Positions 9,148-13,922 of a stretch of DNA of 64,000 nucleotides are shown here, piece after piece. Every line of letters starts with the position of its first letter. The first letter of the stretch is position 1. A program made the translations under genes and the position numbers. The DNA lies in the NCBI GenBank assembly GCA_016932045.1, contig JAFGDO010000003.1:12115-76114 (forward strand), read 5' to 3'. The notes under the pieces were generated by a model. That model saw nothing but the letters and a program-made list of their open reading frames with translations, searched no databases and was not told the DNA's origin. This DNA comes from Candidatus Dojkabacteria bacterium. Its GTDB lineage: Bacteria > Patescibacteriota > Dojkabacteria > JAHIVN01.

Positions 9148-9253
9148 TGACTGGGATGAGAATCCACAAGGCAGAACTTAGCGATGCTAAGCAGAACGAA
9201 GCAGAGCTATAGTCTGACCTAGTCCCGTGGATTTATTCTACGGGAGAACTCAC
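9148..9253 (-). repeat. Duplicated 3' end (T arm + acceptor strand) of tRNA-Met, interrupted in the T loop by an 81-nt hairpin element (9165..9245)
   Basis: TGACTGGGATGAGAATC[insert]GAACTCAC versus tRNA 9325..9349 TGACGGGGGTGAGAATCGAACTCAC. Confidence 0.8.
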
Positions 9254-9324
9254 CTTTCTCATTATACTTCTTTTTATTAAACACAGGCTTATCTGCAAGT
9301 TACATTAAACGACGACTACCTGAA

Positions 9325-9398
9325 TGACGGGGGTGAGAATCGAACTCACGACCTGGGGCTTATGAGTCCCCCGCTCTAACCTACTGAGCTACCCCGCC
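9325..9398 (-). tRNA. tRNA-Met(CAT), probably elongator
   Basis: Cloverleaf GGCGGGG/CCCCGTC, D stem GCTC/GAGC, loop CTCATAA, T loop TTCGATT; CCA not encoded. Confidence 0.9.
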
Positions 9399-9551
9399 CC
9401 AGTCAGGCAGATGAACTCTTAATTCAAAGATCCATAGACAAATTTGCATACAAATTCATAAACTACGAATAATTTTACTACATAGGCAAATGAAATAGAA
9501 ATAATAATTAATGATTCATTGTCGGCGTTTGGAAATTTATATTTGTAAAAA

Positions 9552-9649
9552 TTGCGGGGGCTGGAATCCTCAAGGCAGAACTTAGCGATGCTGAGTAAAA
9601 CGAAGCAGGGCTAAAGTCTGACCTAGTCCCGCTCTGCGGGAGAACCAAC
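9552..9649 (-). repeat. Duplicated 3' end of initiator tRNA, interrupted in the T loop by a 73-nt hairpin element (9569..9641)
   Basis: TTGCGGGGGCTGGAATC[insert]GAACCAAC versus tRNA 9765..9789 TTGCGGGGGTTGGAATCGAACCAAC; insert differs from 9165..9245 at 6 of the first 63 nt. Confidence 0.8.
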
Positions 9650-9761
9650 CTGCGTACCCAGTGTCACAGTATCTATTCGACCTAGTATACGCCAGACAAG
9701 CACTTTCTGCTTGTTATCCTACTACCCCAAATAATATCATAACGAGCGTCAAATCATTCTT

Positions 9762-9836
9762 TGGTTGCGGGGGTTGGAATCGAACCAACGACCTCCAGGT
9801 TATGAGCCTAGCGAGCTACCACTGCTCCACCCCGCG
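9762..9836 (-). tRNA. tRNA-fMet(CAT), initiator
   Basis: CGCGGGG...CCCCGCAACCA with C1:A72 mismatch, loop CTCATAA, CCA encoded. Confidence 0.93.
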
Positions 9837-10014
9837 TTCTTGTCTTTACGCTATCTATCTAGAATATGAGGATTTATTGAAATTCCCTCCTTAGCCAATT
9901 TCTCAATAATTCGGATAAAAACAATTGTCTGCAGCATAAGGACTATCAATTTATATCTTACATGCCCTCGTATAGTCAAGCAAACTCTAGATACACTATA
10001 CCGTAGATACTTGA

Positions 10015-10476
10015 TTATAACCCCAGATACTCAGTTAAAGTCTCACTTGGGAAATAAACAAGGAATTGAGAATTTGGATCATGAATTCCAATAAATTCAA
10101 ATCCTTCCCCGGTGAAAAGTTCAAAATTTTTCCTTCCCAGGTATTTCTTCTTAAAAGAATCGTATTCTTTGACTTTAAAATCACCACAACCAATTTGCGG
10201 CCTTTGTTTATCTGGTTTCCTTATCCTGAATACTTTCAGGATATCTTTTCCTAATTTCATTGGTTTAGTAAGTTTTATCACAGGACCATTGTGCTCATCA
10301 ATTCTTTTCCCAAGCTTTTTCGAAAACTTAATAAGGGTTCTAAACTCACTATTTGAATGAGAAAAAATCGTTATATAGTCTATCTTTAAGCCTTTTTCGG
10401 AAATGTATTGATCTTTTACTTCGGATATTCCTCGAGCGATCTGTTCTATTTTGCCTATAACTTCATCCTTGCCCAT
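10015..10476 (-). CDS. Hypothetical protein (possibly VOC/YecM-like fold)
   Basis: 153-aa ORF co-oriented with neighbour; weak resemblance only. Confidence 0.65.
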   Translation of the reverse strand: MGKDEVIGKIEQIARGISEVKDQYISEKGLKIDYITIFSHSNSEFRTLIKFSKKLGKRIDEHNGPVIKLTKPMKLGKDILKVFRIRKPDKQRPQIGCGDFKVKEYDSFKKKYLGRKNFELFTGEGFEFIGIHDPNSQFLVYFPSETLTEYLGL

Positions 10477-10488
10477 AGATATAGCATA

Positions 10489-10923
10489 TTATGAAAATAT
10501 TAGATCATACCAAAGGCGCCATCCGGGTTTCAATTCCTCTTCCCTTACCTTCTCTTCACCTTCTGAATTCAACTCCTTTTGTTTTTCTATATATACGAGT
10601 TTCTGATTCGGAAAAGCTAAATTGAGCTCTTCTCGAGCTTTTAGATCTATATATTCTTTGCTAGAATAATATTTTAATTCCTCCCTCAATTCGGCATTTT
10701 TTTCGAAAAGCTTTTCGAGTCGTTCCTTTTCCTCAAGAATAATCTCATATCTTTCATAACCTTTCCTGATAATCCTAAATATATTTATGGAAAGAAGGAT
10801 AATGCTCAATATACAAATAGATGTAAAGATAACATACCCCCAATTTATACTTACCGATGAATATCTTCTGACAACCCCCTGCCAGAACTTAGATAAAATG
10901 TAGTTTATTTTTTTTCCTATCAT
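10489..10923 (-). CDS. Septum formation initiator (FtsB/DivIC family)
   Basis: Single TM, coiled coil, then EYIDLKAREELNLAFPNQKL. Confidence 0.8.
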   Translation of the reverse strand: MIGKKINYILSKFWQGVVRRYSSVSINWGYVIFTSICILSIILLSINIFRIIRKGYERYEIILEEKERLEKLFEKNAELREELKYYSSKEYIDLKAREELNLAFPNQKLVYIEKQKELNSEGEEKVREEELKPGWRLWYDLIFS

Positions 10924-11068
10924 AGCTTATTATAGCACCTAAGTTTTATAATATATAACTCATGGGCCAAGATATTAATTCGTTTTATGGAATTTTTTAC
11001 GAGTATTGACCTTACTATCTACATAATAGAACTACTTTAGCCGTTTAAGTACATTTATTACAAAATAA

Positions 11069-11097
11069 TTGACATATATCACCTTCAATGTTAGAAT
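11069..11097 (+). promoter_or_regulatory. Sigma70-type promoter of the tyrosine recombinase gene
   Basis: TTGACA-17 nt-TAGAAT with extended -10 TG. Confidence 0.7.
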
Positions 11098-11135
11098 TTG
11101 GGCAGTAAACCTCTAGTTTTCATAAAAATTAAAAA

Positions 11136-12020
11136 ATGACTTTACCAGAAGCACTAAAACAATTTACCGAATATTTAGAAAAACAGGGCCGATCATTATC
11201 GACGATAACCGCATATTCTAAAGACATAGAACAGATGAAAGATTATCTTTCTCAGGAAGAAAGTGTGAAAAAAATAGAAGAGGTTAACACAAAACAGCTT
11301 AATAACTATATAAATAAAATAAGGTCCGATAAGAAGAGTAATTACACTTTAAAGACGATTTCCAGGAAAATTAATAGTATGAAGACTTTATTTAAATTTC
11401 TGATCTCTGAACAATATGTTGACAATAACCCTGCCTTATCAGTAAAACATCCCAAATATGAGATTTCCCCCCCAAGAATTCTTACCAAATTAGAATATTG
11501 CGCCTTAAGGGACGTTACAAGGACTAATCTCCGCTTATTTACAATCGTCGAACTGTTACTTCAAACAGGTGTACGCATCGGCGAGCTTGCAAGACTCACA
11601 ATTGAAGATGTCGCCCTCGATTCAAATACGCCTAAGATTAATGTAAAAGCATTTGGTAGTAACCCCGCAAGAGAGGTAGAATTAAATTCTCAAGCAGAGC
11701 TGGCACTAAGAAAATACCTTGAAATTAGGCCCCAAGCCGAAGATAAGGTTAATGCATTATTCGTAACAAAGAATGGAAACCCATTACTTGTCAGAAATAT
11801 ACGAACAAGCATCACACGATCGCTAAAAAAGATTGGAGTTAAAGGAGCAACAGTTAACGATATACGGAATACTTTCATCCTTCATCAACTTAAGAATGGG
11901 ATGCCAATTGATGTGCTAGCTATTACCGTGGGACACAAGAGGATTACAAGCACAAAAAGGTACTTAGAACTAATTGACGATAAACCAAAGAGGAAATCTA
12001 CAAAGATATTACCCTTATAG
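11136..12020 (+). CDS. Tyrosine recombinase (XerC/XerD-like)
   Basis: N-terminal SAM-like domain (STITAYSKDI), TGVRIGEL, NDIRNTF, GHKRITSTKRY. Confidence 0.88.
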   Translation: MTLPEALKQFTEYLEKQGRSLSTITAYSKDIEQMKDYLSQEESVKKIEEVNTKQLNNYINKIRSDKKSNYTLKTISRKINSMKTLFKFLISEQYVDNNPALSVKHPKYEISPPRILTKLEYCALRDVTRTNLRLFTIVELLLQTGVRIGELARLTIEDVALDSNTPKINVKAFGSNPAREVELNSQAELALRKYLEIRPQAEDKVNALFVTKNGNPLLVRNIRTSITRSLKKIGVKGATVNDIRNTFILHQLKNGMPIDVLAITVGHKRITSTKRYLELIDDKPKRKSTKILPL

Positions 12021-12049
12021 AATTCTTAAAAGAAGTAAAGAGAAAACCG

Positions 12050-13453
12050 CTATTTGTTTAACGACTTAATAATTCCCCGTGCACCCATTACACCAGTAAC
12101 TGCAGCTCCTATAATGTTACCTGAAACACCAGCTCCATCTCCTGCTACAAAAAGACCCCTTATCTCTGTTTGAAGTCCTTTATCGGTCATTACCTTAGAG
12201 CCTCTATATTTAACTTCAGGAGCATAAAGTAACGTAGAACCAGCATTTATACCAGGCATCACTCGATCAAGTTTTTCGAGACCTTCAAGAATATCCGTTG
12301 TGATCCTGTATGGCATAGCCATTGATATATCTCCTGGAGTTACTTCTTTTAGAGTAGGAGAAATATAACTCTTTTCAATTCTTTTCCATGTACTTCTCCT
12401 ACCAGCTTTAAGATCGGCTAACCTTTGTAAAATTGGCTTGCCTCCTCCAAGGGTAGTAGCAAGTTCAGCTATGGATCTTGCATATGCTGTTGTATTTTCT
12501 ACCGGTTCAGTTAATTCTATCTCTGTGACAAAAGCAAAGTTAGAATTGGTCGAGTCATGACTCGAGTTCGTATGGCCATTTACACACACATACCCTTTAT
12601 AATCCTCTATAGTAACCGTGCCATAGGGACATGGACAGAATGTCCTTATAACATCATCAAAATGCTTTGTTCTCATCTCAAATATTGACTCGTACATGAG
12701 CTCACTATATTCACGCATCACTGACTCTGGAAATTCTACTCTAACACCCACCTCTATCTTATCGTACAAATATTCGATGCTATATTTCTTGCAAATATCC
12801 TGCAGCCACTTAGCACCAACTCTACCTGGAGCAACCAACGTTTTTCCCGCATAAATCTCTCGTCCCTTATCAGTGACTACCCCTTTACACACTCCTCTTT
12901 TTATAATTAAGTCTTTCACTAGGGTTTTAGACATCAACACAACTCCGCTATCTTCGAAATAATCCTGGATTTTCTTGATTAACTTTTCTAATTTATCGGT
13001 CCCTACATGTCTAGCTTTTCTCACATAAAGCTTGATATCATTTTTTTGTGCTTGTTCAACCAACTCCTGAACCCTATCGCTGTCCTTTGGATAGTACTCT
13101 CCATTGACACCGTATTCTGAGAATATTTTATCAACATAGTTAACTAGCTTAACATACCTATCAATAGAGATCAGGCTCAAAGCTTTTCTGTGACTGAGTA
13201 CCGGAGTGTAATGCAGTTTTCCATCAGAATAGGTGCCTCCACCACCAAATCCGACCATTGCTTCTGTCTTTTTTCTCTTCTCTGCCCTTTCTCCCCTTTC
13301 AATAAGCAAAATTGCTAGATTTGGATTATGTTTTAATAGTTCATAAGTGGCAAATATACCAGCAGGTCCTGCGCCCACGACTATGACATCAAAATTTTTT
13401 GACCTTTGTCTTGACATGAGAGGATTGAGGAAAAAAGCAGTATTATGATACAC
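12050..13453 (-). CDS. FAD-dependent oxidoreductase (COG2509-like)
   Basis: VVGAGPAG, GGGGTYSDGKL, RTFCPCP, GLFVAGDGAG; true start probably MSRQRS. Confidence 0.85.
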   Translation of the reverse strand: MYHNTAFFLNPLMSRQRSKNFDVIVVGAGPAGIFATYELLKHNPNLAILLIERGERAEKRKKTEAMVGFGGGGTYSDGKLHYTPVLSHRKALSLISIDRYVKLVNYVDKIFSEYGVNGEYYPKDSDRVQELVEQAQKNDIKLYVRKARHVGTDKLEKLIKKIQDYFEDSGVVLMSKTLVKDLIIKRGVCKGVVTDKGREIYAGKTLVAPGRVGAKWLQDICKKYSIEYLYDKIEVGVRVEFPESVMREYSELMYESIFEMRTKHFDDVIRTFCPCPYGTVTIEDYKGYVCVNGHTNSSHDSTNSNFAFVTEIELTEPVENTTAYARSIAELATTLGGGKPILQRLADLKAGRRSTWKRIEKSYISPTLKEVTPGDISMAMPYRITTDILEGLEKLDRVMPGINAGSTLLYAPEVKYRGSKVMTDKGLQTEIRGLFVAGDGAGVSGNIIGAAVTGVMGARGIIKSLNK

Positions 13454-13624
13454 AACTTGAGTAAACTGTGCAAATACGACATATATATTTTATATATATG
13501 ACCATCTATTCACCCATATCAGCATAAAAGCAAATACCCCGGAGAAATTGAATAAACTGCTTTTCTATTGTAAAATACCGAAGCAGTTTAAAAATATTTA
13601 TAGTAAAGTATAAATCTCAAACTG

Positions 13625-13735
13625 GGACCACTAGCTCAGCTGCTCAATGAGTTCAGGTTGAGTAGCTAGTTCAACAAGCTTACGAAACCTAGCGAGAATT
13701 AGTCCCGCTGAGACTACTGAATTGGGAGTGAGAGC
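13625..13735 (+). repeat. Duplicated 5' end (acceptor strand + D arm) of tRNA-Ile, interrupted in the D loop by an 85-nt hairpin element (13643..13727)
   Basis: GGACCACTAGCTCAGCTG[insert]GTGAGAGC versus tRNA GGGCCAGTAGCTCAGTTGGTGAGAGC; insert starts CTCAA and ends TAGTCCC...GGGA like the other two. Confidence 0.72.
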
Positions 13736-13773
13736 TTATTGAAAAAGTTGTTCTTTAAATAATCAATTCTATT

Positions 13774-13847
13774 GGGCCAGTAGCTCAGTTGGTGAGAGCA
13801 CGGTTCTTATAAAGCCGGGGTCGGTGGTTCGAGTCCACCCTGGCCCA
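13774..13847 (+). tRNA. tRNA-Ile(TAT)
   Basis: Cloverleaf GGGCCAG/CTGGCCC, anticodon arm CGGTT-CTTATAA-AGCCG (TAT at 13808..13810), T loop TTCGAGT; CCA not encoded. Confidence 0.9.
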
Positions 13848-13922
13848 CACTAGAAATATTTAGTAATTCGTAGCCTGTAATCCGAAGGAATTCCATCCAA
13901 GAGGGAGATTACAATATATAAA

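Follow-up and report, generated by a model that had tools for sequence, protein, structure and literature searches.

Each of the three transfer RNA (tRNA) genes in a 64,000-nucleotide (nt) stretch of contig JAFGDO010000003.1 of a Candidatus Dojkabacteria bacterium, here called the window, is accompanied by a displaced copy of its own left end that is split by a two-hairpin insert. The three split copies are real and above chance, and the insert (H) represents a mobile family with compensatory, structure-keeping changes. The units in the window would belong, as members without a gene, to a family of small and selfish cassettes living at tRNA genes; on balance, and by a modest measure, it appears probable that such a cassette enters a tRNA loop, regenerates the gene, and is nicked in trans by small GIY-YIG nucleases.

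Split tRNA-end copies in the window and the hairpin insert family

The tRNA genes of the window, called by both ARAGORN and Rfam (n = 3), are two tRNA-Met(CAU) genes on the minus strand (Met1 and Met2) and one tRNA-Ile(UAU) gene on the plus strand. The leftmost 25-26 nt of each gene recur on its left as a copy that is arranged (long arm, insert, short arm) as 17+81+8, 17+73+8, and 18+85+8 nt for Met1, Met2, and Ile, respectively. Mismatches are confined to the long arms (2, 1, and 3), with 0 in the short arms, and spacers of 71 nt, 112 nt (up to the encoded CCA), and 38 nt separate the copies from the intact genes, which reproduces the geometry of the original prediction at all three genes. 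Each 8-nt inner arm is unique to the neighbouring tRNA (1 of the 45 tRNAs) in the source genome (G000; 1.46 Mb, 32 contigs).

At Met1, the long outer arm, a copy of the last 17 nt of the tRNA with 2 mismatches, is found at 9148..9164 (minus strand) and is followed by the 81-nt type B insert at 9165..9245 (plus strand; CACAAGGC...GACCTAG-TCC...GGA), which splits the T loop between C56 and G57 (TTC^GATT) and lies antisense to the tRNA. The inner arm at 9246..9253 (minus strand), consisting of the 5' strand of the T stem plus TTC, matches this tRNA only and without mismatches, and the spacer at 9254..9324 ends, on the tRNA strand, with ATGAGAAA directly before that arm; the intact gene occupies 9325..9398 (minus strand). 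Folding of the Met1 insert yields z scores of -5.1 as RNA and -3.9 as DNA, relative to mononucleotide shuffles. The Met2 unit has the same T-loop split and comprises the displaced 3'-end copy of 17 nt with 1 mismatch (9552..9568, minus strand), a 73-nt type B two-hairpin insert (9569..9641, plus strand) with 91% identity to the Met1 insert over 68 nt, the inner arm (9642..9649, minus strand), matching this tRNA only, and a spacer (9650..9761) in which the motif GACCTAGT may represent a putative decayed second insert, followed by the intact gene with encoded CCA (9762..9836, minus strand).

At the tRNA-Ile locus, which lies entirely on the plus strand, the first 18 nt of the gene are found with 3 mismatches at 13625..13642, right behind a -10-like hexamer, TATAAA (13609..13614), which is probably the native tRNA-Ile promoter. 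The 85-nt type A insert (13643..13727; CTCAATGA...GAATTAG-TCC...GGA) splits the D loop after position 18 in sense orientation and is partly decayed (z about -1). It is followed by the 8-nt inner arm that closes the D stem (13728..13735; this tRNA only), the spacer (13736..13773), which carries G(T/C)TCTTT at -24, a motif common to three other D-loop cassettes of the source genome, and the intact gene (13774..13848).

Spliced alignment of tRNA ends to their flanks gave scores of 34, 41, and 30 for Met1, Met2, and Ile, against a maximum of 23 in the 60 random windows used as control; on 650-nt flanks the spliced aligner chains noise, and there it was used for the gene-orientation column only. 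Mis-assembly, which had been named as an outcome that would overturn the prediction, was ruled out by Logan contigs from a separate assembly of run X1, which may be the source sample; in these contigs, all three copies read through into their tRNAs with 0 differences at a depth of 18-22.

The inserts share a design that starts with CTCAA and a long hairpin, continues with a fixed motif, which is GAATTAG in type A and GACCTAG in type B, and ends with a second hairpin closed by TCC/GGA. When stem pairs were counted outward from the anchored fixed motifs in 126 distinct type A cores, the first three pairs adjoining these motifs were formed in 126, 116, and 116 cores with 4-5 pair types each, compared to shuffle maxima of 117, 81, and 82, pair 1 being preset by the search pattern in the metagenome set and related copies not being independent. 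RNAalifold on a MAFFT alignment of 13 inserts returned no fold, owing to the unequal lengths of the hairpins. No Rfam family matches the inserts, viral contigs gave 0 matches to the type A pattern, the Met2 unit was unmatched in a phage collection, and plasmids gave merely one 22-nt chance match, to the Ile unit. In the open-access literature searched, no description turned up of the insert family or of copied 5' ends, nor of GIY-YIG genes placed at the ends of tRNAs; by these searches the insert family is new.

Some further features of the tRNA genes in the window were observed. The second tRNA-Met (9765-9836) has an unpaired first position, which is initiator-like, but the foot of its anticodon stem has just two successive G-C pairs. 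The tRNA-Ile has a UAU anticodon both in the window and in three family relatives (G001, G002, and G003; orthologs L225-L227), which is unusual, as bacteria mostly use lysidine-modified CAU for such a tRNA-Ile. Upstream of the tRNA-Ile unit, between divergent genes, lies an inverted repeat of 17 bp with a 4-nt loop (13553-13590).

Distribution of the copies and order of events

The source genome contains 17 motif matches, including 14 with the whole design and 3 that lack the start motif and are distant from tRNAs. All 14 full-design copies sit in D or T arm/loop sites of copied tRNA ends, although no more than 3% of the genome lies within 500 nt of a tRNA. Five of the 14 are upstream 5'-end copies split in the D arm with a sense insert, and the nine downstream 3'-end copies are split in the T loop, with the insert antisense in six and sense in three; moreover, tRNA-Leu(GAG) has one copy per side, in opposite chromosome directions. 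Therefore, the side is set by which tRNA end is copied and insert orientation is free, and the earlier claim that both follow the chromosome strand reflects an accident of three cases. The neighbouring tRNA is the clear best match for only 9/14 copies, and the Pro(GGG) copy, for example, fits Pro(CGG/UGG) better than its neighbour; the statement that each copy matches its own neighbour thereby holds for the three in the window and fails genome-wide.

Across the source genome, 32/87 tRNA flanks scored at least 22, versus 3/60 random windows, so that a few of the 32 are due to chance. Other, shorter hairpin families split further tRNA-end copies in this genome, and other small hairpin families are linked to tRNAs in part (6/11, 11/25, and 5/7). 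Boxes resembling a -10 element precede the far copy in 4/5 upstream cases. The spacer motif G(T/C)TCTTT is common to four D-loop 18/19 cassettes (Ile, Phe, and two Leu) and occurs at 1/41 other tRNAs, which points to a spacer that may travel with the cassette.

A joint pattern search covered 400 genomes of the phylum, including one unpublished genome (G180) as a negative row, and matched 12 of them; setting aside 3 without the stem left 9 element-bearing genomes versus 391 others, and the reversed pattern gave 4 single matches in the same 400 genomes. With the strict type B pattern, 6/9 matches were in named Patescibacteria and Ca. Dojkabacteria assemblies. At least 121 type A loci were matched in metagenomes, and the set from outside the source genome comprised 144 distinct copies, 10 of which fail the stem test. 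In this set, the left flank of the element is repeated downstream in 43/144 and upstream in 10/144 copies. The 32/144 copies that have their duplicate in a called tRNA are split in the D arm or in one of two loops (anticodon or T), with an inner arm of median 7 nt (range 1-19) and a median of 87 nt from the element to the restored site. Inner arms were short from the start, because they still measure 3-9 nt beside repeated flanks (L') of 37-99 nt that are near-identical. The target word 5' of the element is variable (19 kinds at 38 sites and 11 kinds at 14 sites), and tandem units were encountered at L047, L051, L135, and E. coli tyrT.

Elements were also observed in settings other than split tRNA copies. 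Sixteen type A elements (L042, L058, L059, L062, L070, L075, L085, L089, L092, L100, L108, L119, L122, L126, L133, and L146) occupy conserved AT-rich leaders shortly before protein-gene starts, with no tRNA, and are possibly a domesticated, cis-acting form. Others are found at the 5' ends of 5S and (by eye, probably) 16S rRNA genes (L167 and L118), or in split, duplicated protein-gene starts with a self-repairing layout (L066, L162, and L135; rplK and dnaB by eye, with L135 unidentified and in tandem). Antisense copies abut mature 5' ends at L068, L076, L150, L158, L168, and L190, and some of the elements at 5' ends of mature tRNA, transfer-messenger RNA (tmRNA), or rRNA stand in tandem arrays.

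The Met-Met-recombinase-Ile block of the window is conserved in all three family relatives. In G001 and G003, all three orthologous tRNAs are free of copies (empty alleles). At Met2, G002 has its own type B T-loop unit, which is a separate or renewed event because its arms carry the T-stem variant of G002 itself. The tRNA-Ile of G002 has a 5' relic on one side and a 3' relic on the other. Its 5' relic shows 0/25 mismatches to the G003 gene and 4/25 to its own live gene, and the flank of the relic differs from the G003 promoter flank at 7/30 positions, compared to 20/30 for the flank of the live gene. Since relic and flank both match the G003 allele, this locus has kept its old native end as the far copy and received its live gene as an incoming replacement. 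The live tRNA-Ile of G002 is a foreign allele between two decayed ancestral halves (L226:2760-3060). More generally, far copies appear to be displaced native ends and not maintained guides, because the G002 tRNA-Ile end copy matches the sister allele instead of its own live gene; the idea of a decoy or guide scaffold is not supported on these grounds, nor by the finding that copies decay and gather inserts.

Small nucleases, proposed mechanism, and alternatives

Among the GIY-YIG matches in the source genome, 6/7 are small and standalone (84-115 codons, one with an internal stop), and none of these six is more than 270 nt away from a tRNA or tmRNA gene, with which it shares its direction. At three loci (Glu, Ser, and Gly), a GIY-YIG gene fills the slot between the split copy and the live gene. 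Small GIY-YIG matches in G001, G002, and G003 are within 500 nt of a tRNA in 9/13, 11/12, and 6/9 cases, respectively (26/34), two more follow tmRNA, and gene/tRNA pairings are co-directional in 25/25 cases from 30 loci. Per genome, the median count of GIY-YIG matches is 7 for the 9 genomes with elements and 3 for the 391 others, in a tally that includes UvrC, in which counts near 13 are to be read as at least that many and related genomes are not independent. The best solved relatives of the small proteins, by PDB sequence matches, are UPF0213 and Slx1, the latter being a structure-specific nicking enzyme of which standalone prokaryotic forms have been noted (PMC1564403). In G003, the small GIY-YIG gene behind the tmRNA gene was seen to run straight into a type A 3' half and a tmRNA 3'-end copy (L207).

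From the outside in, the layout of a unit is the native end (L), the hairpin insert (H), an inner arm (R') of 5-14 nt, cargo, a fresh end (L'), and the rest of the gene, the cargo being a spacer of 30-110 nt or a small GIY-YIG gene. In the proposed mechanism, a tRNA gene in single-stranded DNA (ssDNA) would fold into its arms, and a standalone GIY-YIG nuclease, similar to Slx1/UPF0213 and produced from a different tRNA locus, would nick a loop or a stem foot, a step modelled after the nick of SsnA beside a hairpin on ssDNA. Repair would then switch template via tRNA-end homology to a cassette-bearing donor, copy H, arm, spacer, and tRNA end, and return, so that the gene would be regenerated, the cell would live, and the native end would be pushed outward with the hairpin inside. 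Because the target would be rebuilt every time, rounds could repeat and tandem arrays could arise, and dead copies could later gather further hairpins. Nicking in trans, the identity of the enzyme, and template switching are the steps that we infer; layout, mobility of H, empty alleles, displacement with replacement at one locus, and slot occupancy by GIY-YIG genes are observations.

Several findings weigh against this mechanism. Dead copies at Gln-UUG, Glu-UUC, and Ser-UGA hold three or four different hairpins, and because single dead copies do so, at least some inserts arrive after duplication. Only 71/144 outside copies have a called tRNA or tmRNA gene at a distance of up to 500 nt, 16/144 are in AT-rich leaders of protein genes, and 6 copies directly adjoin an intact tRNA or tmRNA gene, exactly at its mature 5' end, without duplication; apart from the 10 that fail the stem test, the other 47/144 include tRNA fragments on short contigs, rRNA 5' ends, and duplicated protein-gene starts. 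H occurs in both orientations in both loops and, therefore, does not set the polarity of duplication. The shared spacer motif was found in 0/18 upstream cassettes of other genomes, for which reason its candidacy as a general boxA-type antiterminator was dropped as well. A GIY-YIG gene is near only 15/140 outside loci (300-1500 nt examined at each) and none is in the window, many GIY-YIG-rich genomes lack type A and B inserts, and in G001, despite 13 small GIY-YIG matches, the Met1 insert is unmatched and the three alleles are empty. Finally, four Y1-type open reading frames (ORFs) elsewhere in the source genome are possible helpers. A weak profile built from 4 fragments matched no Y1 gene near the 140 loci. 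The four ORFs are RAYT-like, are located at C23:31527, C30:8191, C8:27824, and C31:37809, not near tRNAs, and some are flanked by their own short palindromic repeats.

The multiple inserts in dead copies would be accommodated by an order of two independent steps, in which tRNA ends are duplicated or displaced first, by gene replacement, entry of a GIY-YIG cassette, or decayed islands, and hairpins land later in the loops of dead copies, live genes being intolerant of them. Such a course of events, the main alternative, is possible but doubtful: it is compatible with the free orientation of H, the partial tRNA linkage of other small hairpin families, the whole-gene replacement at the G002 tRNA-Ile, and copies without a detected insert, but it does not readily explain an inner boundary at a median of 7 nt from H in any loop, young events included, the recurrence of the 8-nt arm in E. 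coli, or the joint travel of spacer motif and H type over four tRNA species. A host-maintained RNA module, in which copy and insert are transcribed together and cleavage at the tRNA-like end sets free a small RNA of the RtT or RrB kind, or in which they serve the neighbouring tRNA as decoy, guide, or processing aid, is improbable. Its attraction lies in the strong conservation of H structure, in the folding of the Met2 copy, which closes the T stem around the insert on the tRNA strand, in the 5/6 changes of the T-stem 3' strand that keep a standard pair in 12 T-loop copies (one row being compared with the wrong Met gene), and in the transcription and processing reported for the RNAs of the E. 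coli tRNA repeats called TLRs (PMC8144298). The T-stem substitutions of both Met copies do give G-U pairs on the sense strand, as had been noted, yet both are transitions, which result in G-U by default; moreover, two relatives have empty alleles, copies in G002 and at Pro(GGG) are unmatched to the live gene, H lies on either strand relative to the transcript, and the Ile insert is decaying. Two RNA runs contained foreign tRNA pieces only, which says nothing for or against expression.

The window also encodes a tyrosine recombinase with a Pfam Phage_integrase match (11136..12020, plus strand), and the original prediction noted that this gene sits between the loci. Classical att scars made by this enzyme or its kin would agree with the partial tRNA duplications that island integration usually leaves, but this explanation is largely refuted and very improbable. 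The recombinase was dropped as driver: it is an Xer-type, single-copy core gene (one copy in 30/31 genomes; best NCBIfam matches to Xer types, below cut-off) that is not part of the system, remains in place beside the empty tRNA alleles of relatives, and lies outside every repeat pair, and the split sites span D, anticodon, and T loops. That the insert is a minimal intron or a self-cleaving RNA removable from the tRNA is equally hard to credit; the location in tRNA loops and the two fixed motifs around a stem, which resemble small ribozyme cores, would fit, but there is no Rfam match, both orientations relative to the transcript occur, and the insert lies inside an otherwise complete called tRNA in 0/144 outside and 0/14 own copies. 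Hammerhead, K-turn, bridge-RNA, IS91, and reverse-transcription-stop (m1A58) candidates were rejected for wrong core letters, same-strand arms, the lack of a fixed target word, and split sites from 55/56 to 58/59.

Comparison with known systems

Compared with genomic islands, for which partial tRNA duplication is the usual outcome of integration (PMC9897764), the cassettes share the displaced end beside a regenerated intact gene, as observed at the G002 tRNA-Ile and as is presumed for the window. They differ in having no integrase between the repeats, which are 130-210 nt instead of kilobases apart, in the split of the identity block by an insert, and in the many split sites. A parallel for the nuclease is the Ssn system, in which the small GIY-YIG protein SsnA cuts ssDNA beside a hairpin and standalone GIY-YIG genes of ~90 amino acids (aa) are tied to NTS/SRM hairpin repeats, NTS-ssnA-NTS being likened to a mobile element (Chenal et al. 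2025, PMC11893778). Single-domain GIY-YIG proteins of less than 150 aa are likewise present here, at other loci of the source genome and not in the window, but the SRM pattern was found in 0/14 elements and near 0/6 GIY-YIG genes, the best solved relatives are UPF0213 and Slx1, and the main text of PMC11893778 has 0 mentions of tRNA.

With IS200/IS605 and REP/RAYT elements, the cassettes have short imperfect hairpins in common and probably a targeting of the ssDNA type, whereas they lack a fixed tetranucleotide 5' of the element and duplicate the target end. The double-hairpin elements of fungal and other mitochondrial DNA are gene-less, mobile pairs of adjacent hairpins of similar size. Their hosts are organellar, the comparison was made by description only, and to our knowledge regeneration of a split tRNA gene is not known for them.

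The strongest resemblance is to the TLRs of E. coli, 22 repeats at ten loci that have been known since 1978, are defined by 18-19 bp of 3'-end identity downstream of a tRNA or rRNA gene, and are reported to have no known function or origin (PMC8144298). In E. coli K-12, the tyrT repeat was measured as 19 nt, a 68-nt multi-hairpin T-loop insert, an 8-nt arm, a spacer, and the intact gene, in tandem, and the lysT copies are split in like manner. Because the tyrT repeats share this 19+68+8 geometry, the two Met loci of the window are, by analogy, TLR-like in layout: both are downstream 3'-end copies (17 nt with 1-2 mismatches) in which the T loop is split by a multi-hairpin insert next to an inner arm of ~8 nt. 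The split T loop may already have been described in Rudd 1999 or Egan and Landy 1978. In E. coli TLRs, ATGAGAA immediately precedes the short arm on its 5' side, as it does at some loci here, including Met1, where the spacer end ATGAGAAA takes that place; the association is patchy, with 2/4 outside sense T-loop copies, 1/140 others, 2/12 of the T-loop copies compared, and, genome-wide, 1/9 motif matches near a tRNA. In contrast to TLRs, the Ile locus copies a 5' end, which falls outside the TLR definition, and copies of 5' ends, with the split in the D or anticodon loop, are likewise found upstream; furthermore, the insert family is another one, with the RtT model (RF00391) matching the E. coli locus and none of the inserts here, and GIY-YIG cargo is present at sister loci. 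Relative to the TLR layout, both the form that copies a 5' end with a D-loop split and the present insert family are new variants. The original prediction of an undescribed, target-duplicating micro-element was consequently right in part: an element is supported by the conserved insert family, the empty alleles, the many tRNAs involved, and the fixed short arm, but its layout is that of E. coli TLR/RtT and is not undescribed, and the strand rule, the recombinase link, and the guide idea did not stand.

A wider and tentative reading is that TLRs, from E. coli RtT to these loci in the Candidate Phyla Radiation (CPR), might be non-autonomous members of one unrecognised mobile class, in which a GIY-YIG protein of ~85 aa and a hairpin cassette, with a 5-10-nt arm reading the target tRNA loop, would insert into and rebuild essential genes (tRNA, tmRNA, rRNA ends, and rplK/dnaB starts), at times swapping in a foreign tRNA allele. 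If this reading of the cassettes is right, they would provide a route for tRNA gene replacement between lineages, would be a very small mobile system within streamlined genomes, and would give rise to false annotations of tRNAs and att sites. The genomes studied here offer many young examples along with empty alleles and gene-bearing forms, and the origin of TLRs is thereby directly testable.

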